This document shows, one piece after another, positions 44,153 through 63,293 of a stretch of DNA of 64,000 nt (positions within the stretch are counted from its first letter, which is position 1; the number at the start of each line of letters is the position of its first letter). Position numbers and translations under genes: made by a program. The notes under the pieces are model-generated. The model was not told where the DNA came from, searched no databases, and worked only from the letters and a program-made list of their open reading frames with translations. The DNA is taken from contig CM000429.1 in NCBI GenBank assembly GCA_000165345.1, positions 480,001 to 544,000 on the forward strand, in the 5' to 3' direction.

Positions 44153-45067
44153 ATGAGCGATTTAGACAGACAAATTGAGCAATTGAGACGTTGTGAGCCG
44201 ATTAAAGAATCTGAGGTAAAATTATTATGTATGAAGGCTAGAGAGATTCTTGTAGAGGAGGCGAATGTGCAAAGAATTGATACTCCAGTGACAATTTGCG
44301 GAGATATTCATGGCCAATTTTTTGATCTAATGGAGCTTTTTAAAGTCGGTGGTGAACTTCCTGACACAAATTACTTATTTTTAGGTGATTTCGTTGACAG
44401 AGGATACTACAGTGTAGAAACATTCTTGCTCCTCATTGCTCTTAAAGTCAGGTATCCAGATAGAATTATGCTTATCAGAGGAAACCATGAAACACGACAA
44501 ATCACACAAGTATATGGATTTTACGATGAATGTCTCCGTAAGTACGGGAGTGTAAACGTTTGGAGGTATTGTACAGAAATATTTGATTATCTCTCTCTCG
44601 CTTCATTAATTGAAGACCGAATTTTATGCGTTCATGGGGGGTTGTCCCCCAGTATTGCTACAATTGATGAAATACGAAGCCTAGATAGAAAGCAAGAAGT
44701 TCCTCATGACGGTTCCATGTGCGACCTTCTTTGGTCAGATCCAGAGGAAATAAATGGATGGGGAATAAGCCCAAGAGGAGCAGGATATATTTTTGGGTCA
44801 GATGTAGTAAAGAGTTTCAATCATTGTAACGATATTGAACTGATTACACGAGCTCATCAGCTTGCTATGGACGGTTATAAGTGGTGGTTTGAACAAAATT
44901 TAGTCACAGTTTGGAGTGCGCCAAATTATTGTTATAGATGCGGAAATATTGCTACTGTAATGGAGTTAGATGAACAATTAAACTACCACTTTAAAACATT
45001 TGAGGCAGCTCCTGCTGAACAAAGAGGAATTCCTGCCAAGAGACCTGCTCCTGACTATTTTATTTGA
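44153..45067 (+). CDS. PPP4C: Serine/threonine protein phosphatase 4 catalytic subunit (PPP family)
   Basis: Near-colinear identity with PP4C: [46 protein letters not shown], the C-terminal [14 protein letters not shown] (PP4-type tail rather than the PP2A TPDYFL tail). Single exon, true ATG start. Confidence 0.9.
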
Positions 45068-45160: not shown

Positions 45161-46132
45161 CTAATTGATTGACAATATTGATTCAAATAACTTTATCATT
45201 GCTTCATAAATTAGGAACATTATTCCACTGTGCATGCTAACTTTAGGAATATGAGTCATTAGTCCTGGGAAATAATGGTCCCTTGCAAAGTTGACAAACT
45301 CTTTATGGCTTAATTTTAATATATTGATATCGTAGGTTTTTAGTTGGATATTTTCTATCTTAGCCATTTGCATCCTGGATCTAATAACCTGTAGTGGGTA
45401 TGTCAATGCCGATGCTAATAACTTCGAAATGAATCCAAAGATGAAGAAGCGTAGATTACTCAGATAAAGATGTTTTGAATTATAATTAATTGATTGATTT
45501 CGAAATATGTCATATATTACAAGTTGTATCAATGTATGCGGAATCAACATTAAAGTTGGAATGAACCCAGAATATAAACCACATATTCCATTTTTTTGGT
45601 AAATACTATACATGCATTCAGCAATGCCATGTAACCCAGCAGAATATTGCTTCCAGCCCTTTTTCTTTGTATTTACTGATTGAATTTCTAACCTGGATTT
45701 AACTAACCAAAGTGGATGAACGAGAGCAGTCGAAAGCACACTTGCAATGATTGTTGAAATTGAATTTGAGAACGGAGAAATTTGTAAAGGATAAAAGCAT
45801 GTTTGGCTTTTAACAACGTAGCTGAACACAAAACACTTATTTTCTTCTATAAAATAACGGATAAAATCAAAAAAGTACCTAAAAATAAACCATGAGACTC
45901 CAGATGCAACTAACTGGCCGTTTAATCCCTTATATAATCCAATAACTCCTTCAGTATCTATTATAAAGTTGATTGTGGATATCAATGTCGGGTGTGCGAT
46001 CACTGCACCATCGGATGCTGCTGCCACTTGCTGTCTAGTCCTTACTACATCTAGTGGATGAAGTAAAAAAGAAGTTATTATTGCAGATATAAGCGATGAA
46101 GTTGCTGTTAAAAAGAATTTAATTTTCTTCAT
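45161..46132 (-). CDS. Mitochondrial carrier family (SLC25) protein
   Basis: Tripartite ~100-aa repeats with the P-x-D/E-x-x-K/R signature (PLDVVRTRQQV, PLWLVKSRLEI, PLQVIRSRMQM). True ATG start. Confidence 0.75.
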   Translation of the reverse strand: MKKIKFFLTATSSLISAIITSFLLHPLDVVRTRQQVAAASDGAVIAHPTLISTINFIIDTEGVIGLYKGLNGQLVASGVSWFIFRYFFDFIRYFIEENKCFVFSYVVKSQTCFYPLQISPFSNSISTIIASVLSTALVHPLWLVKSRLEIQSVNTKKKGWKQYSAGLHGIAECMYSIYQKNGICGLYSGFIPTLMLIPHTLIQLVIYDIFRNQSINYNSKHLYLSNLRFFIFGFISKLLASALTYPLQVIRSRMQMAKIENIQLKTYDINILKLSHKEFVNFARDHYFPGLMTHIPKVSMHSGIMFLIYEAMIKLFESILSIN

Positions 46133-50054: not shown

Positions 50055-51050
50055 ATGAAATACTACTTGCCTTTCGGAGTATTACTCTTAATTATACAAC
50101 TTTATCTTTCAAGGTGTTCTGAATCTTCGGAAGATACGGAAAGCGAAGTTCTTTCGATTCAAGATTCGTCTGAATTGAGGGATTGCAAACAAGCCATAAG
50201 TGGTATATCAGGAGCTGGTTATCATGAATTTACATTGGACCCTTCACTATTGAAGGTAATTTCGGAAATGGGTAATTCAGGCCAACCGTGCCGATTTATT
50301 GTAGTTGATGGCATGCAGCAGAACTATCAGCAGGCTGATGATGGTGGTTCATCAAGCCAAGTAAATTATTTAAGCCAACAAGTTCAGACTCCAATGCAAA
50401 TGACAATGCAAACGCAAATGCCAGTTCAAATGCCAATGCAAATGCCAATGCAAATGCCAACACAAATGCAAATACAAAGAACTAATCAGGGATTGCAGTT
50501 CGGACACGGTAATATGGTACAATGGGTAGGTGGACCAGTCAACTTTGACAACATGGTTGACTGTAAGTTCTACCGTCAAAATCCGGGATTTTGTGTACCT
50601 ATGTCTATCTATACTCCTTGTTCACGTTGTAAGGCGCGTGTGAGAACAATTTTTAGAACTAGTTACAAGGTTAGATGTCCTGGCCAGGAATCTTTCCCAG
50701 CACAATTGAGGCCTTACTTTGCTTGGGTGCCTACTAGTCATCGTAACCCAAAGAGAGAGAGAGGAATATTTTCCAGATGGAGACGCCAGTTTATGTGCAT
50801 TGTAATGGCAATTTCCGATATTCCAAAGGATGTTTCTTTGTTTTGGCAGCATTCTCAGATAACTTTCGATTCTGCATATGAAACACCACAATATGTTCCT
50901 TTACTTCTTGGTCCATATGGAGATCAGTCTACTGCACTGGGATATGCTGCTGGCACAAACTTCCTTACTTCTAGCGGCTTAAGTTATCAAGGCGCACGTC
51001 ATTATATTCAAAATCAAAATTCAGAACGAAATGCCCACGAAGCTTCCTAA
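50055..51050 (+). CDS. Secreted cysteine-rich protein, paralog of the 48904 gene, with an internal (M-P/T-x-Q)n repeat
   Basis: Signal peptide. The same 6-Cys module (VDCKFYRQNPGFC...TPCSRCKARV...VRCPGQESFPAQLRPYFAWV) aligns residue-for-residue with the upstream gene. No C-terminal hydrophobic tail. Confidence 0.5.
   Translation: MKYYLPFGVLLLIIQLYLSRCSESSEDTESEVLSIQDSSELRDCKQAISGISGAGYHEFTLDPSLLKVISEMGNSGQPCRFIVVDGMQQNYQQADDGGSSSQVNYLSQQVQTPMQMTMQTQMPVQMPMQMPMQMPTQMQIQRTNQGLQFGHGNMVQWVGGPVNFDNMVDCKFYRQNPGFCVPMSIYTPCSRCKARVRTIFRTSYKVRCPGQESFPAQLRPYFAWVPTSHRNPKRERGIFSRWRRQFMCIVMAISDIPKDVSLFWQHSQITFDSAYETPQYVPLLLGPYGDQSTALGYAAGTNFLTSSGLSYQGARHYIQNQNSERNAHEAS
50389..50470 (+). repeat. Imperfect 12-bp-period tandem repeat (caaatgccaatg)n encoding a QMPxQMPMQMPMQMPTQMQ tract
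   Basis: Directly visible: ccaatgcaaatgacaatgcaaacgcaaatgccagttcaaatgccaatgcaaatgccaatgcaaatgccaacacaaatgcaaatacaa. Confidence 0.7.
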
Positions 51051-51204: not shown

Positions 51205-51758
51205 ATGACAAATCTCTTTGCTGACGAGATGAAAGAGGAGGACACGTTTTTACTTAATAATTCACTAATACCAGGCCGTTCTATTGAAAACGGGCTAGGA
51301 AATATGATTGACAAAATAGAAAGTGAAAAAGCTCAGTTATTTTCATGCGGTAAGTGAAATGTTTATACAAATATTTTCATTTGATTCAATGAAGTAAAAT
51401 CAATAATAGATGCATATTGGGACTGCACAGATATAAAATTTACAACTGATGCAGTTTTTTCAGTAACTAAATTGTCATGCGACTTCATGGATAAGATAGT
51501 AAGTACGATATTTATTAATCTCAGTTTTATTACGTTTTAATTAAGATGTTATGCGCAATTAAATTGACTAACTCAAAGAATATTGACCAGTCCTTTACAT
51601 TTGATAGCATATTGTCCGTGTTGGAGAATGATGATCGGAAACATAAAAGAGCACAAGATGTTATAAGGTCATATAGAAGACATAATGAATTACTATTTGC
51701 ATTCGAGGACAGAGAATATATAAAGTCCTCAAATCGCGACGCAATAGGAACTAAGTGA
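51205..51758 (+). CDS. Small three-exon gene (~130 aa, product unknown)
   Basis: ATG at ~51205. Exon 1 ends ..AQLFSC at a GTAAGT (~51350). Intron 1 ends at ttttttcAG (~51463). Exon 2 is a 35-nt micro-exon, ~51464-51498, followed by a GTAAGT. Intron 2 ends at ttaattaAG (~51545). Exon 3 is the 51546-51758 ORF, and all phases are compatible. Confidence 0.35.
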
Positions 51759-51941: not shown

Positions 51942-54900
51942 ATGAGTAACCTCGAAAAATTAGTTATTTGTGGGGTGAGAAGCTTTTCACCTGACCGTAG
52001 GGAGGGCATTGCCTTTGAAAGTCCAATTACATTAATTGTAGGCCAAAATGGATCGGGTAAAACAACAATAATAGAATGCTTAAAAGCATCTATATCTGGT
52101 GAGCTTCCTCCTAGTTCTAAGAGTGGGCAGTATTTCATTCACGATCCTAAATTGAATGGATCTGCTGAGGTTAGGGCTCAAATAAGATTAATTTTTAGAG
52201 AGTATCAAAATAAAAAAAAGATTCAAATAGTTAGATCATTTCAGCTATCCCATATTAAGACTAGGAAGGCTGATTTAAAATCTACTGGGGATTTAAAGCC
52301 TCAATTTAGAGTTTTAGAAAGTGTTTTACAGACTAAAGATGAAGAATCTGGGCAAGTGACCAGTATAAGTCATAAATGTGCAGATATAAATGCTCAAGTT
52401 CCTATTTTATTTGGGGTTTCTAATTCGATAATTGAAAATGTACTATTTTGTCATCAAGAGGATTCAAACTGGCCATTACAAGATATGGCTAAAGTTAAAA
52501 AAAAATTTGATGAATTATTTGGATCCACAAGATATAGCAAAGCTTTGGAATTAATTACAAAGTTGAAGGGTGAATATAATAAGAAAATTAAGGAGAAAGC
52601 TTTATTTAACGAGAACTTAAAACAGAAAATCGACTTTTTGAAAGGAATAATAAATAAAAAAAATCAATGTTTACTTAGAAAAGCTGAGATAAATAAGGAA
52701 ATGCAGGTTTTAGCCACTAAATTAGATTCACATTTGAATATGAAGCAAGAATTGATGAAAAATGTAGATATGTTAGATAAGCTTCAGTCTGAGCTTATTT
52801 TTGAAATGTCATTATTTGATACACACGTAAAGGAGATAAAAGAAATGGAAAACGTTTTATTAAAATCAAATTATAATCAATTAGAAGATGAATTAGAAAT
52901 TAATTCACTCTTGCATAATGAATTCGAAGAAATTCAAAATCTGAATTCTAAACTTAAAAACTTGCAAAACCAAACAAATCACATCAAAAATAATCTAGAA
53001 AATTTTGGAGTAAACAGCTCAGCAGATGAGTTTGCTCAACGAAAAAATGAGGTTCTTAGAAAAATTGCTGAAATAAAAAAATTAACAGCCTCGAAAGAAA
53101 TATTATTGTTTTTAGAAAATTCTTTGGTTGCTTTAAATGAACAGCTAACTAATTATAAGGATTTGAATTGGGAATCAGTACAAAAAACCATTTCTATACT
53201 AGAAGTTAACAAGACTGAAATAGATTCTTCATTAGTTAATTTAAAAGCAGAATTAAACTTCAAGATAGAAGAAAAGAAAAAATTATTCGACTCTATTAAT
53301 AATAAAAGAGAAGAGCAAATGAAATTGCAAAAAGATTTTGATAAGATTTGTGAGAAAATTAAAGAGAAAACGCATATAGATAATGAGATAAATTGTTTAA
53401 AATCAAAAATCCAGGAAAATACAGATATTTATACTAATGAAAAGTTATTCAATGTGAATTATTTGAATAACGCATATAATTGTACATATGATCTGGGAAA
53501 AATTAATGGCGAACTGACTATTTTGGAGCGTATAAAGAGTTCTAATATATTTAATATTACTCATTTTGAATATGATGAAAGCGCTGGAAGCTTTAGTGAG
53601 ATGATTGAACGAAGGGAAACTGAGTATCAATGTAAAAAAATTGAAACTTTGAACATCTGGAAGGAACTAGAACAGATCGTAGGAGATTTTGGGACTAAAG
53701 ATAACACTTCAATGTTAGATTTCCAATGCAAATTACTATTGGAAAAACTCGAAAGTTTCCCATTAGATATGGAAAATCGGCAAATAGAATTAAAAAGCTC
53801 ACTTAGTCAAATTGAGATAGAGATATTAATAATTGACGAAAATATTCAACGCCTTGAATTTGAAATTCAAGAAGTAACAAATAAAATCCAATTTGCCAAC
53901 TTGGAAATTAAAAATCTGGAAATTGAGCACTGCAAAAGGAAAGATTTTTTGAAGAATTCTATTGAAGAGTTAGAACAAGATTTCGAATTTCTCTTTCGAA
54001 ATAGGTAAGTTTCTCGCACTAATCAAAGAAAAAACAACGCTTTATAGAAAAATGTTTGATATATCTAATCAAGATGTTTCAAATAAGACCCTTATTCAAT
54101 CTCTTTTATCAATTCGAGAAGAAGAGGCTAATCTTAATACTAAGATCGTTAAATCGAATCAAATTATTGAGGAATTGAATAACGTGATAAAATTGATGAA
54201 TAAGCGGAAACAACTTGAATCATCTAAAAAAAATATTAATATACTTAATCATAATATTTATTCCCTACTAGGAATAAATAAGCTAGAGTGTTTGACAGAA
54301 ACTGACTTTGGCCATAATAAAAGTTTTATTCAAGAATTATACCTTAAAAAAAAAAATGAATTGGATGTTCTTCAAATAGCAATCGAGAAAATACGATGTG
54401 AAATATCAAAACTGACAGGCGAATTTAAGTCCAATGAAAACTGGCTGGAAAAGTTCACATGTGACTCAAAAGGCTATTCTTCTATAGAGGAGTTGTCTGA
54501 AAAGTACCTAAGTGGAGTTTTTGAACAACAGACAATGAGTTTGTGTGTTAAAGATTTGGAGAAGTACCATAAATCTCTTCAGAAAGCACTAATGAAGTTT
54601 CACATAGATAAAATGACGGAAATTAATAGAACTATAAAGGAGTTATGGAACATTACTTATAAAGGTCATGATATTGACTATATCGCAATAAGGAGCGATG
54701 CAGAGGATAATGAAGAAAATTTCACTGTGGAAAAAAAATCATCGCGAACTCCTTCCGGAACTAAGTCGTTTAATTATAGAGTAGTAATGATACAAAATGG
54801 TGTAGAACTTGACATGAAAGGTAGGATTTAAACAAAACGCGCAAATTTATTGGATAATTCTTTTTTTTTAGGAAGATGCTCTGCCGGTCAAAGAGTGCTT

Positions 54901-55243
54901 GCGTGCATAATAATTAGACTTGCGCTAGCAGAGTCGTTCTGCGTTAACTGTGGAATTCTAGCACTTGATGAGCCTACGACAAACTTAGATAGGTTTAATA
55001 TTAAGGGCTTAGCAGAGGCATTATCATATTTGATCAAATTCAGAAAGCAACAAAAAAATTTCCAGGTAAGTACAAAAAACAAGTTGAGAAATACGTTCAT
55101 GCTTTTAGTTAATAATAATTACACATGATGAAAATTTTGTAAGAGTTATGGCCCAAGCACAGCAGTGTGATCACTTTTTTCATGTATCAAAAGATGAACA
55201 AGGATATTCAACAATTAGGCAAGTAGACTTTCATGGATATTAG
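51942..55243 (+). CDS. RAD50: Rad50 DNA repair ATPase, four exons
   Basis: N-terminal Walker [19 protein letters not shown], with QIRL and [11 protein letters not shown] blocks. C-terminal signature [20 protein letters not shown]-loop [12 protein letters not shown] and H-loop ITHDE. Exons are ~51942-54004, 54048-54820, 54872-55065 and 55109-55243. Donors are GTAAGT, GTAGGA and GTAAGT, all with AG acceptors, and the reading phases check out. Confidence 0.85.
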
Positions 55244-55342: not shown

Positions 55343-56512
55343 ATGAGCAATCTATCTGATTATGCGAAATATATTTTAAATGGGGAGTTAGTTGCAATAC
55401 CGACTGAAACTGTGTATGGGTTGGGTGGAAATGCTTACGACAGATCCTCTATATTAAAAATTTTCAAGATAAAAGGAAGGCCAATAAACAATCCTTTGAT
55501 ATGCCATGTACACAGCTTCAAGTTTGCAGAAGATAATGTTTTTGAGTTGTCTGAAAGGACAAGAGTCATATATAAAATTTTGACTGATAAGTTTTGGCCA
55601 GGTCCATTAACAGTAATTTCTAAGAAGAGACATAATATTGTAGATGAAGTTTCAGTCTCAGGTAAAGTTGGAGTTAGATGCCCCAACAATCAATTGACGT
55701 TAGACCTGCTTAAGCTGTCATCCGTCCCTATTGCTGCCCCTTCAGCAAATCGGTCAGGCCATATAAGTCCCACTACTCCCCTGCATGTATCAAAGGAATT
55801 TGATCAAAGTTATATGAATGAGGTAGGAATAAAAGTTTGGATTTTGGATGGAGGTGAATGTTGTAGCGTAGGAGTAGAATCAACTGTTTTAGAGTATTAT
55901 GAAGATGGCAATTTTATTTCTATTTTTAGATGCGGTAAAGTTACTAAAAAGCAAATATGGGAAACTTTGATCGATAACTGTAGAAATAATGAATGGATCA
56001 AAGAAATTAAAATATCATATTTTGGTAGCAATAACTCATCACCGAATAGAAACTACTTATCTCTTCACGATACAGTCGCAATTAGTCCTGGAATGGACAT
56101 TAAACACTACTCGCCAACTATTTGTACTAAATTAATATCATTTATTTCAGATACTAATAAATATACAGGTATAAATGTTGATTTAAGAAACATAATATTG
56201 ATTGATATTGGATCAAAGCTTTCATTTCTTAGGTGTTATGTCCGTCATTATTTTTCTTTGTGTGACGATTACGATTTTTCATTAGCATGTAAAAACTTAT
56301 TTGCAACTTTACATCAAGCAGAGGATTTTGCTAATAGCCTCGATGATCTTTCTTCCGTCTATATTTTCATTACTGGATTTGAGACGGAAGATAATATTTC
56401 ATTGGCTCTTTGGGATAGAGTCTATAGAGCTTCATCTGGAGAGTTGATTTATTGCAATTTGAACGAAATAAAGATTCAACATAAATACATTAAAAGATTT
56501 TACAAAGTATAA
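55343..56512 (+). CDS. SUA5: Sua5/YrdC threonylcarbamoyl-AMP synthase (tRNA t6A pathway)
   Basis: YrdC fold motifs (LVAIPTETVYGLGGNAYD, WPGPLTVI, RCPN, APSANRSGHISPTT) plus a Sua5-type C-terminal domain. True ATG start. Confidence 0.8.
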   Translation: MSNLSDYAKYILNGELVAIPTETVYGLGGNAYDRSSILKIFKIKGRPINNPLICHVHSFKFAEDNVFELSERTRVIYKILTDKFWPGPLTVISKKRHNIVDEVSVSGKVGVRCPNNQLTLDLLKLSSVPIAAPSANRSGHISPTTPLHVSKEFDQSYMNEVGIKVWILDGGECCSVGVESTVLEYYEDGNFISIFRCGKVTKKQIWETLIDNCRNNEWIKEIKISYFGSNNSSPNRNYLSLHDTVAISPGMDIKHYSPTICTKLISFISDTNKYTGINVDLRNIILIDIGSKLSFLRCYVRHYFSLCDDYDFSLACKNLFATLHQAEDFANSLDDLSSVYIFITGFETEDNISLALWDRVYRASSGELIYCNLNEIKIQHKYIKRFYKV

Positions 56513-56724: not shown

Positions 56725-58015
56725 ATGAACCCATTTGATTTTCCTATTGTAATTGATACTGGCCAGTTTCAAACAAGAATAGGTAGTTCAATTAATAAGC
56801 TTCCTCAGATTATTATTGATACAATCTTATTTGAAAAAATTGAAGTAAAAGAAATAAATTTTGATAAAAAAATTTTTTCAGATAAACTTGGAATTAGCGA
56901 ACATTGTATTGAAACGAAGTCACTAAGTTCATCAAATAATTGGAACCCGCAAAAAAAATCACTTCTTGTGAATGACTACCAGGATATTACACATCCTTTC
57001 AATTATCTTGATGGACTTGATTGGAATTTGTTAGAAACGTTTTGGACTGACATAATTTCAAGAGAAATGTGTTATGACACCACGATGTGTCCTGTTTTGC
57101 TATCTGAACCTCACAACGCACCATTTGACTTTCAGGATCATTCGATGGAGTTTTTTTTTGAATCGCTTTCTGTGCCTTCATTCAATTGCATTTCTCAAGA
57201 ATTACTTTCGGTTGATGCAGTCCAAAGAGGGCTTCCAAATATTTTTCACAAATCAAATAGCAAGGGATCAGTTGGAATTATTGTACATTTTGGTGACTCA
57301 AGTATTAGAATACTTCCTATTGCCTCCGGATATTTATTATCGGACTATATTGGAATTATTAATTTAGGAGGGTATTCAATAACAAATTCATTATTTGATA
57401 ACTTTAAGACAAATTTTAAGTCTTCTTCTCCAATTACACACAAAAATATTGACAGCATTAAATCGTATGGCATTTTTGATGGAATCATCACAAAAATGGC
57501 TATTCCATATATTTGTGATGAGATCATCTCGGTTGCTAGAAAGTGCCCTGTCGACTATTTACGACTTCTGTTAAAAAATATAATATTTATTGGCGGATCG
57601 TCAATCAACTCTCTGCTTTCGACCTATTTCAAGAACTATTTTAAGGTACGTTTTAATTGAACCTAACTTTTGTTATCACACTACATGTGAACATGGAATT
57701 TTGTTTTCAGATTTTGCTAGAAAGAAATAACATCAGTATAGACGACATTCAAGTTATTAACTTATCTAATTCATCTAATATTGAGGAAAAGATATTGGGA
57801 AGATGTTCTACATGGCTTGGCGGTTCTTATTTTGCGAAAAATTCAGGTTTGGTGGGCCATTTCTTTAATAAAGAACAGGTATGAATATTTGAACTTGCAA
57901 CATCCACATACATTTTGACTATTTTTACACGATTTTCAATATACTGTAGTACGAAGAATATGGGTCCTGTGCAATACGTAGACTATTTGATCAGGGAGTT
58001 GTTAATACCGCCTGA
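56725..58015 (+). CDS. Divergent actin-related protein (Arp), three exons
   Basis: Actin-fold N-terminus (IVIDTGQFQTRIG). The C-terminal blocks IIFIGGSS and ILGRCSTWLGGSYFA are split by introns. Exon 1 is 56725-~57645 with a GTACGT donor, and intron 1 ends at ttttcAG (~57710). Exon 2 is ~57711-57878 with a GTATGA donor, and intron 2 ends at ctgtAG (~57949). Exon 3 is ~57950-58015 (YEEYGSCAIRRLFDQGVVNTA*). Confidence 0.55.
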
Positions 58016-58075: not shown

Positions 58076-59461
58076 ATGACCAATTTCCTATACCCCATTT
58101 TGCTTAGTTGTATTTTAAATATTCGCCTACTTTTCTTTATTTTCACAGTTGCAAATGCAGCAAATAACAGTGATCAATGCATAAATATTCTAAATAGATG
58201 GGATTTGCGACAAGGAATGGAAAACAAATGCCCCAACTGGGTGGTTGATGTGCGTTGGATAATTTATGATGTAAAGGACGGAGAGGGATTCAATCTCCAA
58301 AGAAATGTATTTGATAGGATGGCATTAGTTGTCTCGAGTCTTAATGAAATCATGTATAAAAAAAACGAGGATAAATTTGCAGTTCTAATTCTGCCCCCAT
58401 TTTGTAATATCGCCCATTGGACTTATAATTCCAAACGAAGATTACCTTGGTCAACGTTTTTTAGCATAAAACAAAATGGATTACCAACATTGGAATATGA
58501 CATCTACAAGAGATTAACTGGTATAGTTAATATAGGTGCTGAAGTAGTCGGGCTAAACTTTGACTGGAACAACAAATCATTTCAATCAAGTACTTCAATA
58601 GAATATTATAATAGCTTTGAAATATCAGAATCAAGACATTTGAATTCAAAGTGCTTCTTTAACAATTATGTTAGAAATGGGAATGTAGTTTATGGAGGAC
58701 GTTGTGAATTAGTAAAAATTAGAAGTCTTATTTGTCTTTCTTTTTTTAAGTTAATGAGATTTAAAGAAGTCTCAGAAGAAATATATAAAATATTGGAGTC
58801 GAACAGGAAAGAAGGAAAACTTCACAATTATTTAATCAAGCATACGGAAGGAATTCTCGTTCCATGGCCTTGGGAACTAAGCAAATATAGAGTTTTGGAT
58901 GTAATTAGCTATAATAACAATATAAGAAGATATGCAAATTTATACATGTCCGCAAATACTTTTTTTGATGAAAAAAAACCTTTTATAAGTGTTCACTTAA
59001 GAAGAAATGATTTTGTATTTTTAAGAAATGATGATATACCAACATTTGATCAAGTTATTGATAGATTATTACAGCTTTCAAATGATCTTAAAACAAAACG
59101 TGTTGTAATATCCACAGACAGCAATGAATATGAAAAAAATGAATTATTGGATATTTTTTTGAAACACAATCTTGATTTACATATTATTAATATTAAGGAT
59201 CATCTTGATGATGGAATCATTTCAGCAGTAAGTCAAGTAATACTTCTGAACGGTGAATATTTTATTGGAACAAAAGAATCACGCTTTAGTTTTTCAGTTA
59301 TTTGGGACTGTATTTTATCAGTAATGAACGATTTTAAAGATGATATTTCAAGGAATTTCAACAAATGTAATGAGGTATTTTGTGGAAAAGCTAATGAGAA
59401 GAGCTCAATATGTAGGGAGCACCCAGACAGACTTCCAAAATTTAATATTGATGCCGCTTAA
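58076..59461 (+). CDS. POFUT2: GDP-fucose protein O-fucosyltransferase 2 (POFUT2, O-FucT family)
   Basis: Signal peptide. Colinear matches to POFUT2 blocks: YDVKDGEGFNLQRNVFDRMA, LILPPF..AHW, ISVHLRRNDF, VVISTDS.EYEK.EL, and the C-terminal block EYFIGTKESRFSFSV. True ATG start. Confidence 0.75.
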   Translation: MTNFLYPILLSCILNIRLLFFIFTVANAANNSDQCINILNRWDLRQGMENKCPNWVVDVRWIIYDVKDGEGFNLQRNVFDRMALVVSSLNEIMYKKNEDKFAVLILPPFCNIAHWTYNSKRRLPWSTFFSIKQNGLPTLEYDIYKRLTGIVNIGAEVVGLNFDWNNKSFQSSTSIEYYNSFEISESRHLNSKCFFNNYVRNGNVVYGGRCELVKIRSLICLSFFKLMRFKEVSEEIYKILESNRKEGKLHNYLIKHTEGILVPWPWELSKYRVLDVISYNNNIRRYANLYMSANTFFDEKKPFISVHLRRNDFVFLRNDDIPTFDQVIDRLLQLSNDLKTKRVVISTDSNEYEKNELLDIFLKHNLDLHIINIKDHLDDGIISAVSQVILLNGEYFIGTKESRFSFSVIWDCILSVMNDFKDDISRNFNKCNEVFCGKANEKSSICREHPDRLPKFNIDAA

Positions 59462-59487: not shown

Positions 59488-62235
59488 CTAAACCATCATT
59501 CTTTTAGACCTCAAATAGCTTAAGCCAAATATAGATGAAGTAAAGATACTCATTCCAACAATCCAAGAAAATCGGCTGTTAAAATTATTAAATATTAAAT
59601 ATTTAATGTTATTTAATAAATTCTTGACCTTCGAATCTTTAGTATTTTTATATTGAATATTAGTTTCTGGTTTTGGCAAAATTTTAAGAGCGTTATTATA
59701 AATATCAACATTAATGGTGCTAGCATAATTCTCAAGCGTCATTTCTTTATATTCAGCCATACCGGGTATAATATTATTGCCATTATGCTCTTTCAACTGA
59801 TTGCTGCACTCTAAAGATCTAATATATTTTAGTGTTTTAAATAAATCAGTTTCTAAATTGTAATCCAAAAAACAAACATCAAATTCACTATTAATATTTG
59901 ATGAAGCATCAATATTTTTTACCATGTATGTATCTTGAAGGAAGTATCCATTGTTGGCGTAATATTCGCGTACCCCAACACCAGAAATAACCACAATTCG
60001 AGAAAAGCCGTGAATTAAAGCTAAGTACTCTGCTGCTCTCAACAGAGTTTTACCAAATCCTCTATGTTGTACTGCAGAATCTGTTTCTTTCTCATTATTG
60101 TAATGCGGAACAACTGTTCCATAAATATGTAGCTCTCTAATTAATGCTGAATCTTTCAAAACTGGAAACTTTTCTAAAATTTCCTCACTGTCTTCAATGA
60201 ATTCGTCCATGTTGTACTCGCTATGTATGTCAGATTCATGTTTACTTCCTGAACTTGACTGGTTTTGAGCTACTACTTCTTCATCTTTGAATCTAACTCT
60301 CAAACGAATAAATCCGTAAAGATCCAGTTCATCCTTTGATTCAACAGAAATAAAAAATTCAGCCCCCCCAAAGCTATTATATTTTCTTATTCTTAACACA
60401 ATTTGAATATCCCTATCCTTCGTATTTAAACCGTTATCTTTATTTTTGGTGTGCTTCTTAGCTTTCTTATTTTTTTTATTTTTTAGTTTATTACCGTTTT
60501 CTTCCTTGTCATTAAAGCTTCCATTTGAATTTGCATTTAATTGATTTAGTTGTTTGTTGCTAATGTGCTTATCTTTGATCTCTCTGCATCTTAGGCATCT
60601 GCAATTTAAGTCTAAAGCTTTCATCTTATCATGAATCATTTGCCTTAAATTCGTACAGCTATTACCTGCAATAATGCTTTGGTTAGGTATATCCCTAATG
60701 ACTCTATTGACTCTAATCCAGGGATGAAGACCAACTTTACAAGATAATAACAAATAGCAAAGTGTATCTGGAAAAATTTCTGCGTATGGAAGGTAGGCCT
60801 TATTTTCGTACCATTCTTCTATTTTAGAAAATGGTACAACTTCGCATGGGTAAAGCTTCCATTGATCACATTGAAGTTTTGGGTCGCTTAATACATTAGA
60901 AAGCATCAAATAGTCATTGACAACTCCTAAAGTTTGTGCGTTATCAAATCCTATATATGCCTGCAAGTCTTTAAGCAAAGTGATTCTTTTTGATAATATA
61001 TGGCTTTCATCTGGAGCCAAATTAAATTCATTAGTACTTGTATGATCGTAAGGATTCGGTAAATCTGGCATTAAGTGAATATCAACTTTGTATCCAGTAT
61101 CTTTAAGCAGTCTAATTGATTTTACAATTTGACGCATATAGCAGCCTCTGTTTATGAGTTTTAAGACCCAATAGTCAGTATGTTGAATTCCTAGTTGTAC
61201 CCTAGTGCATCCAAATTCCCGTAACTGAAGTATTTCATCTAGAGTAATATAATCCGGCCTTGTTTCTAATGTTAAACCAATTATTCTGCATTCTGCAGTT
61301 TGATTTAACTCAACTTCTTCAGAAAGAGGTAGTTTTTCTCTATCTATATAGTCCCTGTTATCATAAATATTATTTTTATTTGTGAAAGTATTTGCAGCAT
61401 AATAAATGTCACGAATAAAAGCGTTTTGATACTCTTTGGGATATCCACTCCAAGTCCCACCTAGTACTAATACTTCAATTTTATCTATAATATGTCCATT
61501 GTTTTTAAGTGTAATTGATCGATCTCTAAACTGCTTTATAGCATCGAACGAATTTTGATTAGCTCTCAATACTGCTGGTTCTGTAGAAAGATAGCTTCTA
61601 GGTTGTCCAGGTTCATTTGGGCAATAGTGGCAATCATGTTTGCAAGAGAATGCGCCGGGTGAAGTTAATATTGTGATAACTATTACCCCTGACTGACTTC
61701 TAACAGCTTTCTTTGAAAGCAAAGCTTTTTCTAAGTTACTTCCAACCTGAGGTTGATTATTTTTTGAACTATATTCCTGAAATAACATACTAATGTTATC
61801 GCTTGAAAGCTCTATTCCTTTTTGAGAAACTAATTCTTCATATACTCTTATAATTTGAGCCTTGCTTGGTGCAACTTTATGACGTCTCCTAAGTATATTT
61901 ATCACATGTTCATATTCCTCCTTTGTCTTTGGTGATAATAAAATTAAGTCATGTATGAAAGAACTCAATGATTTGACTTCAAGTTCTTCATCATTCTTTT
62001 GACGTTTCTCATAATTAGACCACTCTGCAGAGCTCTTGTAATAGCTCTCTAGATGCCTCCTTCTATGCTCGTTCAACAAATCTTCTCTTCTTAACTGTTT
62101 AATTTCGCCTGCATTAACTGGAAAATCATCTCTAAATGCAGGTATTGAGCTATTCACTTCCTCAAAAGTTAGAGCTGAATTCGTATTTACACCCCCTTGA
62201 GATAAGCTATCATCCTGCGTTTTAATTTTTTGCAT
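59488..62235 (-). CDS. ELP3: Elongator subunit Elp3 (radical-SAM + GNAT acetyltransferase) with N-terminal extension, internal insertion and a C-terminal transmembrane tail
   Basis: Radical SAM CxxxCxxC (FSCKHDCHYCPNEPGQPRSYLSTEP). The Elp3 core blocks are present. A GNAT motif follows (HRGFGKTLLRAAEYLA). The protein then has a ~150-aa extension ending in the hydrophobic helix FSWIVGMSIFTSSIFGLSYL-RSKRMMV. The track start is a TTG, and the first ATG lies ~10 codons in. Confidence 0.8.
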   Translation of the reverse strand: MQKIKTQDDSLSQGGVNTNSALTFEEVNSSIPAFRDDFPVNAGEIKQLRREDLLNEHRRRHLESYYKSSAEWSNYEKRQKNDEELEVKSLSSFIHDLILLSPKTKEEYEHVINILRRRHKVAPSKAQIIRVYEELVSQKGIELSSDNISMLFQEYSSKNNQPQVGSNLEKALLSKKAVRSQSGVIVITILTSPGAFSCKHDCHYCPNEPGQPRSYLSTEPAVLRANQNSFDAIKQFRDRSITLKNNGHIIDKIEVLVLGGTWSGYPKEYQNAFIRDIYYAANTFTNKNNIYDNRDYIDREKLPLSEEVELNQTAECRIIGLTLETRPDYITLDEILQLREFGCTRVQLGIQHTDYWVLKLINRGCYMRQIVKSIRLLKDTGYKVDIHLMPDLPNPYDHTSTNEFNLAPDESHILSKRITLLKDLQAYIGFDNAQTLGVVNDYLMLSNVLSDPKLQCDQWKLYPCEVVPFSKIEEWYENKAYLPYAEIFPDTLCYLLLSCKVGLHPWIRVNRVIRDIPNQSIIAGNSCTNLRQMIHDKMKALDLNCRCLRCREIKDKHISNKQLNQLNANSNGSFNDKEENGNKLKNKKNKKAKKHTKNKDNGLNTKDRDIQIVLRIRKYNSFGGAEFFISVESKDELDLYGFIRLRVRFKDEEVVAQNQSSSGSKHESDIHSEYNMDEFIEDSEEILEKFPVLKDSALIRELHIYGTVVPHYNNEKETDSAVQHRGFGKTLLRAAEYLALIHGFSRIVVISGVGVREYYANNGYFLQDTYMVKNIDASSNINSEFDVCFLDYNLETDLFKTLKYIRSLECSNQLKEHNGNNIIPGMAEYKEMTLENYASTINVDIYNNALKILPKPETNIQYKNTKDSKVKNLLNNIKYLIFNNFNSRFSWIVGMSIFTSSIFGLSYLRSKRMMV

Positions 62236-63293
62236 TATATGAGACAATTTAGCGATTATTTTCAAATCCCTAATTTCTTTTTAGACCCAATACATCAACT
62301 TTATTAAAAAAACAAAAAGTTAGAAAAAATTAAATGAGAATAGTAAATGGCACTAGTCTGAAAAATTTAACGATCTTAATAACTGAAAGTAATTTCTTTT
62401 ATTCAGAAGTATGGAAAAATATTGCTTTTGACTAAATGTTAATCAAATTTGAATAAAGTTGACATTAAATTTTATCGGCGCTGAGAACTAACTAGTCAGG
62501 CGCTCTATTTTGAAATTTTTGTGTGGTAATTAATTTGAGGCGAACGAATAAATTGAATATGAAACATACTAAAAGTTATTTTTGAAGTAGCAAGATATTT
62601 TGTTAGAATAAGGTCGTGAAACTGAGTTGTTGTACAATATGTAAGAACAATACATTAAACTTCGTTGTTTTAAAATAAGTAATGCATAAAATAGCACTTT
62701 GACTGTCGTAGATAGATCCCGCCTATAGACAGAGATGTGAAGGATTAATACGAGTAAAGATAAAAGGGGGAAAAAAAATTAAATGAGGAAATAATTGATT
62801 AATTTGGTTCCGATAATAAAGAGTAAATTTTGTATTGGACAAACCTTAAATTTTTTCACAAGTGATGATAAGTCAATCACCATAGATTAGGAAATTAAGC
62901 AACTTGTTTTAGTTATTAATTTATTTTGGTTATAACTTTGAATTTAATACTTTTCATTGGATATCTTTAAATAATAAAAATTGGAATTATGTGATATCTA
63001 TTCAAGTTTGTATTTATAATAACAAACTTGCTTATCTAAATCAACGCATAGAAATAGTTTGATTTATTAACGTGAATATCTTTCATTTCATTATTAATTT
63101 CAAGTATATTTATTTTGTAATAATTCAAGATTTATAGTGGCAATATCATTACAAGCGCAAGTTTATGATTGAATTTATATGCTTTCACAAATAAATGTAT
63201 TTACAGCAAGAATAACACAAATCAAATACGTATTCGTTAGTTTATACAATTAAATATTGTTTAATCACTTTGCAAAATTTATATATTATTACA

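Follow-up and report, generated by a model that had tools for sequence, protein, structure and literature searches.

A hook-less Rad50 orthologue in Cryptosporidium, with shortened arms and a predicted helical hairpin at the tip

The DNA analysed here (the window) is a stretch of 64,000 nucleotides (nt) of Cryptosporidium parvum chromosome 1, positions 480,001 to 544,000 of the forward strand of contig CM000429.1 (NCBI GenBank assembly GCA_000165345.1), with a G+C content of ~30%. At window positions 51942-55243 it holds the gene for Rad50. The gene has long been annotated as RAD50 and is not itself new; the subject of this report is the tip of the encoded coiled coil, where the CxxC zinc hook, which counts as a defining feature of the protein in organisms as far apart as phages and humans, is absent. 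The gene comprises four exons and three introns (all positions are those of the window):

51942-54004, + strand: Rad50 exon 1; aa 1-687 and 2 nt of codon 688; N-terminal ATPase half, whole N-arm, apex and start of the C-arm
54005-54047, + strand: Rad50 intron 1; 43 nt, GTAAGT..TAG, phase 2, interrupting codon R688
54048-54820, + strand: Rad50 exon 2; aa 688-946 in part; C-arm and start of the C-terminal head
54821-54871, + strand: Rad50 intron 2; 51 nt, GTAGGA..TTTAG, phase 1, interrupting codon G946 right before the ATP-binding cassette (ABC) signature
54872-55065, + strand: Rad50 exon 3; aa 946-1010; signature, head-domain CVNC and Walker B/D-loop
55066-55108, + strand: Rad50 intron 3; 43 nt, GTAAGT..TTTAG, phase 0, behind Q1010
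55109-55243, + strand: Rad50 exon 4; aa 1011-1054 and the stop codon TAG; H-loop

Exon 1 belongs to a single open reading frame (ORF) of 688 codons (51942-54008), in which translation without splicing would reach a stop at 54006-54008. All three introns are of the GT..AG type, and the spliced coding sequence of 3165 nt yields 1054 aa plus the stop, in agreement with the three tiny introns and the product of ~1055 aa proposed in the initial annotation. Every residue of this product is identical to C. parvum WRK30635.1 (cpbgf_1002420), which falls into one 90%-identity cluster with the orthologues of C. hominis, C. tyzzeri and C. meleagridis. Removal of intron 2 restores the ABC signature (MKG/RCSAGQ, the slash marking the junction), and removal of intron 3 restores the H-loop region (NFQ/LIIITHDE). 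The Rad50 gene of C. muris, the most divergent species at hand (43% identity), likewise has three introns, of 91, 141 and 57 nt, at the same positions and in the same phases.

Deposited models of the C. parvum and C. hominis proteins range from 1046 to 1095 aa; their differences are confined to the N-terminus, the intron 2 acceptor and the C-end. The 1046-aa models (KAL5370483.1 and WKS76143.1 from C. parvum, KAL3129945.1 from C. hominis) are short of exactly eight residues, GRCSAGQR, and with them the ABC signature. Use of an in-frame AG 24 nt 3' of the intron 2 acceptor, excising 54821-54895, would give such models, which are very likely mis-annotations or, at best, a non-functional isoform. 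The 1095-aa models of C. hominis (OLQ18734.1 and PPA62502.1) are probably over-extended: a small upstream ORF at 51205-51357 (MTNLFADEMKEED...) is fused in place of MSNLEKLV, yielding a spurious N-terminal CVIC.

The head domain carries the following motifs:

52041-52067, + strand: Walker A/P-loop GQNGSGKTT; aa 34-42; invariant G34, N36, G37, G39, K40, T41 and T42
54877-54891, + strand: ABC signature CSAGQ; SAGQ is aa 949-952
54940-54951, + strand: head-domain CVNC; aa 969-972, just N-terminal to Walker B
54955-54990, + strand: Walker B/D-loop; aa 974-985
55118-55129, + strand: H-loop ITHD; THD is aa 1015-1017

The Walker A, signature, Walker B/D-loop and H-loop columns are invariant across 48 aligned Rad50s, so that the description of these head motifs as intact, made from the window alone, stands. 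In Pfam, AAA_23 (E = 3e-23) and SMC_N both pass their cut-offs. The best match outside the genus is the Rad50 of the chromerid Vitrella (E = 2.6e-134), and the top matches, truncated exon-1 products of the gene itself aside, are either proteins annotated as Rad50 or unnamed predictions whose domains are the same. Solved Rad50 structures (Chaetomium, yeast and human; 5da9, 9bi4, 7zr1) match at E = 1e-100 to 1e-106, compared with 4e-4 for an SMC head. Across the genus, mean pairwise identity is 0.81-0.82 in the head halves, 0.54-0.68 in the coiled-coil base beside the heads and ~0.38-0.41 in the arms. Heads that remain 81-82% identical while the arms drift to ~40% indicate a gene that is constrained and not decaying. 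Each Cryptosporidium species has one Rad50 among the matches listed. Judged by its sequence, the window gene is the single, functional Rad50 orthologue of C. parvum, an ABC-type ATPase with intact motifs; the protein would presumably partner Mre11 both in homologous recombination and in the processing of meiotic breaks.

The zinc hook is missing from this protein. C. parvum Rad50 has 20 cysteines and a single CxxC, C969-V-N-C972, which lies in the C-terminal head; nearly all other Rad50s have an equivalent C[LV]NC there, and the C. parvum motif is a head motif, not a hook. A simple search for CxxC would mistake the head-domain C-[VL]-N-C for a hook. The coiled coil (aa 196-890) contains no CxxC and no Cys/His pair at a spacing of 1-5. 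The initial annotation had seen no CxxC in the coiled coil and only isolated cysteines at the apex, and both observations are upheld by comparison of nine full-length Cryptosporidium Rad50s (8 species, including C. muris): a mid-protein CxxC occurs in 0/9, and the apex cysteines C514 (column C/C/H/C/S/C/S/I/S) and C564 (C/F/F/S/T/S/N/K/E) vary within the genus, as does C596 (C/C/H/Y/Y/H/H/Y/Y). Elsewhere in the genus there are few coiled-coil Cys/His pairs at this spacing, none of them common to different species, and the only coiled-coil cysteine invariant in the nine sequences is C805, near the head.

Two ways in which a hook might have been overlooked, both named in the initial annotation, were tested, and neither was borne out: an additional exon encoding it and a divergent form, such as CxxxC, at the apex. 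No annotated alternative Rad50 model supplies a hook. In a six-frame scan of 51942-55243, the only CxxC besides CVNC is a chance match on the minus strand, and no other CxxC occurs in any + strand frame of the gene span. A single uninterrupted ORF runs from the N-arm through the apex into the C-arm, which leaves no space for a missed exon in this region. No conserved Cys/His site is present at the apex in the nine Cryptosporidium sequences. A Pfam scan of the window protein listed no Rad50 zinc-hook family at E <= 1. The Pfam zinc-hook family (PF04423) is also missing from many Rad50s with clear hooks (CPCC, CQFC), for example those of grasses (P0032-P0034) and dinoflagellate-like sequences (P0015-P0021); since the model overlooks so many hook-bearing proteins, domain annotation is unusable for detecting hook loss. 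The C. parvum protein has the head, the orthology and the coiled coil of a Rad50 and lacks the zinc hook, and this hook-less state is genus-wide, extending to the early-branching C. muris, and not strain-specific.

Outside Cryptosporidium, a mid-protein CxxC is present in 332 of 340 complete Rad50s (235/243 in a first set and 97/97 in a set from a search with Vitrella Rad50). The 8 exceptions are truncated or doubtful models: five are truncated (449-799 aa), and of three that are near full length (P0037, P0171, P0205), one is garbled at the expected hook site and two are green-algal models whose relatives carry hooks. Since the hook is retained in both chromerids (Vitrella CVLC, Chromera CYFC), in Perkinsus (CQLC) and in dinoflagellates (CQFC), its loss belongs to the apicomplexan lineage that gave rise to Cryptosporidium and predates the divergence of C. 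muris. The sample behind this dating had Cryptosporidium as its only apicomplexan: the Vitrella search brought up dinoflagellates, Chromera, Perkinsus, plants and a small number of fungi and animals, and no Plasmodium, Toxoplasma or gregarine. A search of a 5.8-billion-protein set with an apex-region alignment gave zero matches and missed even Cryptosporidium, probably through low-complexity words saturating the candidates.

The arms are also reduced in length. The span from Walker A to the LDEP of Walker B is 943 aa in C. parvum as compared to a median of 1205 aa in 243 complete Rad50s, in line with the shorter coiled coil suspected in the initial annotation. The deficit of ~260 aa (~22%) corresponds to ~130 aa less per arm, or very roughly 19 nm; canonical Rad50 arms measure ~50 nm (PMC6969161). 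Short arms are found in other eukaryotic Rad50s as well: proteins of 985-1108 aa from metagenome contigs (P0134, 985 aa; P0136, 1054 aa; P0212, P0241 and P0158) score near the top against a profile built from Cryptosporidium Rad50s alone. Unlike the Cryptosporidium proteins, these carry a hook at the arm midpoint (K-C-Q-[FV]-C-R, canonically K-C-Q-F-C-R), and arm shortening therefore does not require hook loss.

The fold-back point of the coiled coil was inferred from the secondary structure and confidence of AlphaFold2 models and from arm symmetry. A full-length model of the C. tyzzeri orthologue (same length, 98% identity; 48-sequence alignment; mean predicted local distance difference test score, pLDDT, 78) has near-continuous helix over aa 197-891, with low-confidence breaks that include 497-505 and 581-587 (pLDDT <50) and a non-helical segment at 534-550. 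A model of a fragment of the window protein, aa 440-687 (pLDDT 89), has helices at 441-496, 505-533, 551-586, 589-604 and 610-686, and matches antiparallel coiled coils. A turn at 534-550 balances the arms, with 337 residues in aa 197-533 and 341 in aa 551-891, and sets the breaks at 495-505 and 583-588 opposite each other. The hook of 235 Rad50s lies at 0.547 of the Walker A-LDEP span (5th-95th percentile 0.529-0.566), which translates to C. parvum aa ~550 (range 533-568). The apex is thereby narrowed to a loop within the stretch, aa 510-568, to which it had originally been assigned. The predicted tip is a plain helical hairpin, consisting of helix 506-533, loop 534-550 and helix 551-582, carried on flexible joints at 495-505 and 583-588; no globular hinge, dedicated dimerisation domain or conserved metal ligand is seen in the tip region. 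Its parts are:

53424-53456, + strand: N-strand joint; aa 495-505; non-helical, low-confidence break under the terminal hairpin, with interspecies indels (AlphaFold2, alignment gaps)
53457-53540, + strand: apex N-helix; aa 506-533; predicted helix, pLDDT ~91; candidate zinc-free contact surface
53484-53513, + strand: block of invariant T515, L518, G519, G523 and E524 (T515-x2-LG-x3-GE) in the apex N-helix
53541-53591, + strand: predicted apex loop; aa 534-550, 17 aa, at the place of the canonical CxxC; a loop in both AlphaFold2 models
53592-53687, + strand: apex C-helix; aa 551-582; invariant I555, K565 and W573
53688-53705, + strand: C-strand joint FGTKDN; aa 583-588, opposite the N-strand joint; break at 581-587 in the full-length model and 587-588 in the fragment model

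The C-strand joint is followed by helix 589-604 and an invariant P607. Over aa 486-612, ten residues are invariant in 11 Cryptosporidium-lineage sequences: T515, L518, G519, G523, E524, I555, K565, W573, L592 and P607. Nowhere in the arms is conservation higher than in helix 506-533 (mean pairwise identity 0.52, against 0.38-0.41 for the arms), and this helix is also the least charged segment: D/E/K/R make up 19% of its residues, compared with 27% in the apex loop and 30-42% in every other helical segment. Its aromatic residues include Y507, Y512 and Y516. The loop itself is poorly conserved (mean identity 0.27) and has no cysteine; its sole histidine, H541, is not conserved (column H/Y/F/P/G/D). 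With their spacing of i, i+4 and i+8, T515, G519 and G523 line up as a small-residue stripe along one face of the helix. GxxxG and glycine-zipper stripes of this kind permit very close helix-helix packing, and the T515/G519/G523 stripe is offered as a lead to a possible close-packing surface.

Attempts to map the apex onto canonical hook flanks gave no usable correspondence. MAFFT placed the outgroup hook opposite aa ~577-591, in conflict with HMMER, which placed the P0134 hook opposite aa ~500-503 and the P0134 segment 'ETKFELGRIEGY' over T515..G523. Alignment of the apex with canonical hook flanks by hhalign reached 0.3% probability, and hidden Markov models of the apex and hook-flank motifs, applied in either direction, did not score above shuffled sequences. 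Given these conflicting placements and shuffle-level scores, no homology is claimed for the apex motif.

Two accounts of such a tip have to be weighed, and it is very probable that one of them holds: either an undescribed metal-free apex dimerisation hairpin, built on the T515-x3-G519-x3-G523 stripe with hydrophobic and aromatic partners, has replaced the hook, or the arms are never joined at their tips. We give roughly an even chance to the proposal that two Rad50 molecules are still paired at the tip by zinc-independent protein-protein packing. Elsewhere the hook is a stable dimerisation module, the arms of CC-to-GG mutants move independently, and in fission yeast the MukB hinge can replace the hook (PMC6969161). 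Classical end joining is reported lost in Cryptosporidium (PMC6635534), and Mre11, Spo11, Dmc1 and Rad51 are reported kept in C. parvum/hominis (PMC2488364, Table 2). With end joining lost and Mre11, Spo11 and Dmc1 kept, Cryptosporidium would depend on recombination; because recombination and meiosis have to keep functioning, pairing at the tips has probably persisted. The contact would most likely run through the low-charge, conserved helix 506-533, involving the T515/G519/G523 stripe together with L518 and E524; return-strand residues I555, K565 and W573 would join it. Such a zinc-free contact would serve as a constitutive dimerisation module, as the hook does elsewhere. Several points weigh against this proposal. 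Tip-to-tip association is itself inferred, and the topology of the hairpin was drawn from AlphaFold2 secondary structure, confidence and arm symmetry, not from coordinates. Helix 506-533 exceeds the average conservation of the arms by a modest margin only, and the loop is poorly conserved. The role of the conserved stripe could instead lie in packing inside the hairpin or in binding another partner. The presence of Mre11, finally, is taken from a 2008 inventory (PMC2488364).

The main rival to zinc-free pairing is that the tips are unjoined and that the complex is kept together only by dimeric Mre11, by ATP-driven engagement of the heads and by sideways zipping of the short arms, apex ring closure and long-range tethering having become dispensable in a reduced genome. 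This is plausible, although we do not expect it. The low conservation of the apex loop, the lack of conserved metal ligands and of a dedicated dimerisation domain, and the shortened arms would all be accommodated by open arms. Arm-truncation work in yeast is said to place end joining among the pathways most sensitive to arm length, which also counts in favour of open arms. The reported absence of classical end joining (PMC6635534) points in the same direction, and MRN is reported to activate ATM in vitro without need for a hook connection (PMC3642328). In yeast and human, however, the arms become uncoupled once the hook cysteines are lost, and function requires a stable dimerisation module at the apex (PMC6969161); a constrained surface is also suggested by the invariant T515/L518/G519/G523/E524 block and by the low charge of the helix adjoining the tip. 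A cryptic metal site and an annotation artefact or paralogue are largely excluded. The former, in which zinc or another metal is bound through non-canonical ligands or spacing (CxxxC, or a mix of Cys, His and Asp), could draw on C514, C564, C596 and H541, all close to the apex, and on a C514 column that is C or H in 5/9 sequences; it is nevertheless very unlikely, as all four columns are non-conserved and the coiled coil offers neither a closely spaced Cys/His pair in C. parvum nor one shared between species. Equally far-fetched, if not more so, is a hidden hook exon, a frameshift, or a paralogue or decaying copy of a hook-bearing Rad50. The disagreement among public models might suggest an artefact, but those models differ only at the three places named above, the N-arm, apex and C-arm start occupy one unbroken 688-codon ORF, and the + strand of the six-frame scan is free of hooks. 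The same architecture recurs in independent assemblies of 8 species and in 3 exon-1 sequences from read-archive assemblies. A paralogue or decaying copy is further countered by the strong constraint on the heads, by the one Rad50 per species among the matches listed, and by an inventory that gives Rad50 as present in Cryptosporidium p/h with no copy-number suffix (PMC2488364).

Relative to known systems, the Cryptosporidium protein shares with canonical eukaryotic Rad50 (9bi4, 9q9h, 7zr1, 5da9; hook fragment 5gox) the bipartite ABC head with all catalytic motifs, the head-domain C[LV]NC and the antiparallel coiled coil, with 40-60% identity over best local alignments covering 19-37% of the C. 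parvum query; Mre11, too, is reported in the Cryptosporidium genome. It differs in having neither an apex CxxC nor conserved metal ligands, in its shorter span, in its tip of a 17-aa loop, and in an apex without detectable similarity to hook flanks by profile or motif models. The rad50 CC-to-GG mutants and the Rad50-MukB-hinge chimera (Tatebe et al. 2020, PMC6969161) likewise have an apex without zinc-binding cysteines, and in the chimera a non-zinc dimerisation module fully substitutes in vivo. These, in contrast, are laboratory constructs: the CC-to-GG arms are uncoupled, and the hinge of the chimera is a globular domain of 150-200 aa, whereas the change in Cryptosporidium is natural, fixed in the genus and made without an added domain. 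SMC proteins (cohesin, condensin, Smc5/6, bacterial Smc and MukB) have a globular hinge at the apex; with no hinge and a Rad50 head sequence, the C. parvum protein does not classify as an SMC.

In yeast, mouse and human, hook mutants have a crippled complex, and the role of the apex connection is debated, the candidates being ring closure, end tethering and long-range allostery. If true, either pairing without zinc or open arms would show, by an example from nature, that eukaryotic Mre11-Rad50 can function without zinc-mediated apex closure, which has been viewed as indispensable. Having lost the hook and part of the arm length, while keeping a highly constrained ATPase, a sexual cycle and recombination and lacking end joining, the genus offers a natural test of which apex functions can be done without and of what can stand in for zinc. 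Because gene targeting in Cryptosporidium is generally assumed to run through homologous recombination, its Mre11-Rad50 machinery is also of direct technical, and possibly therapeutic, interest. A literature search of incomplete coverage found no paper tying Cryptosporidium, apicomplexans or Plasmodium to the Rad50 zinc hook and none with a 'hookless' Rad50; as far as can be told, the hook-less Rad50 of Cryptosporidium is undescribed.

The surroundings of the gene in the window are as follows:

44153-45067: PP1-type phosphatase, upstream of Rad50
45161-46132, minus strand: mitochondrial carrier, upstream of Rad50
50055-51050: 331-aa ORF upstream of Rad50, with a hydrophobic N-terminus and an M/Q/P-rich repeat (MQMTMQTQMPVQMPMQMPMQMPTQMQ); no Pfam match
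55343-56512: Sua5/YrdC-family gene, downstream of Rad50
56725-57660: actin-like gene, downstream of Rad50
58076-59461: O-fucosyltransferase, further downstream
59488-62265, minus strand: radical-SAM protein, further downstream

The order Rad50, Sua5/YrdC, actin-like is the same in C. muris (contig L001, 6325-7506 and from 8554). On the contigs of the short hook-bearing Rad50s (L002, 2710-5667; L003; L004, 8001-11327), intergenic spacers are often only tens of bases long, and L002 and L004 both have a VPS9-domain gene upstream of Rad50 and a Leu/Phe-transferase-like gene downstream.

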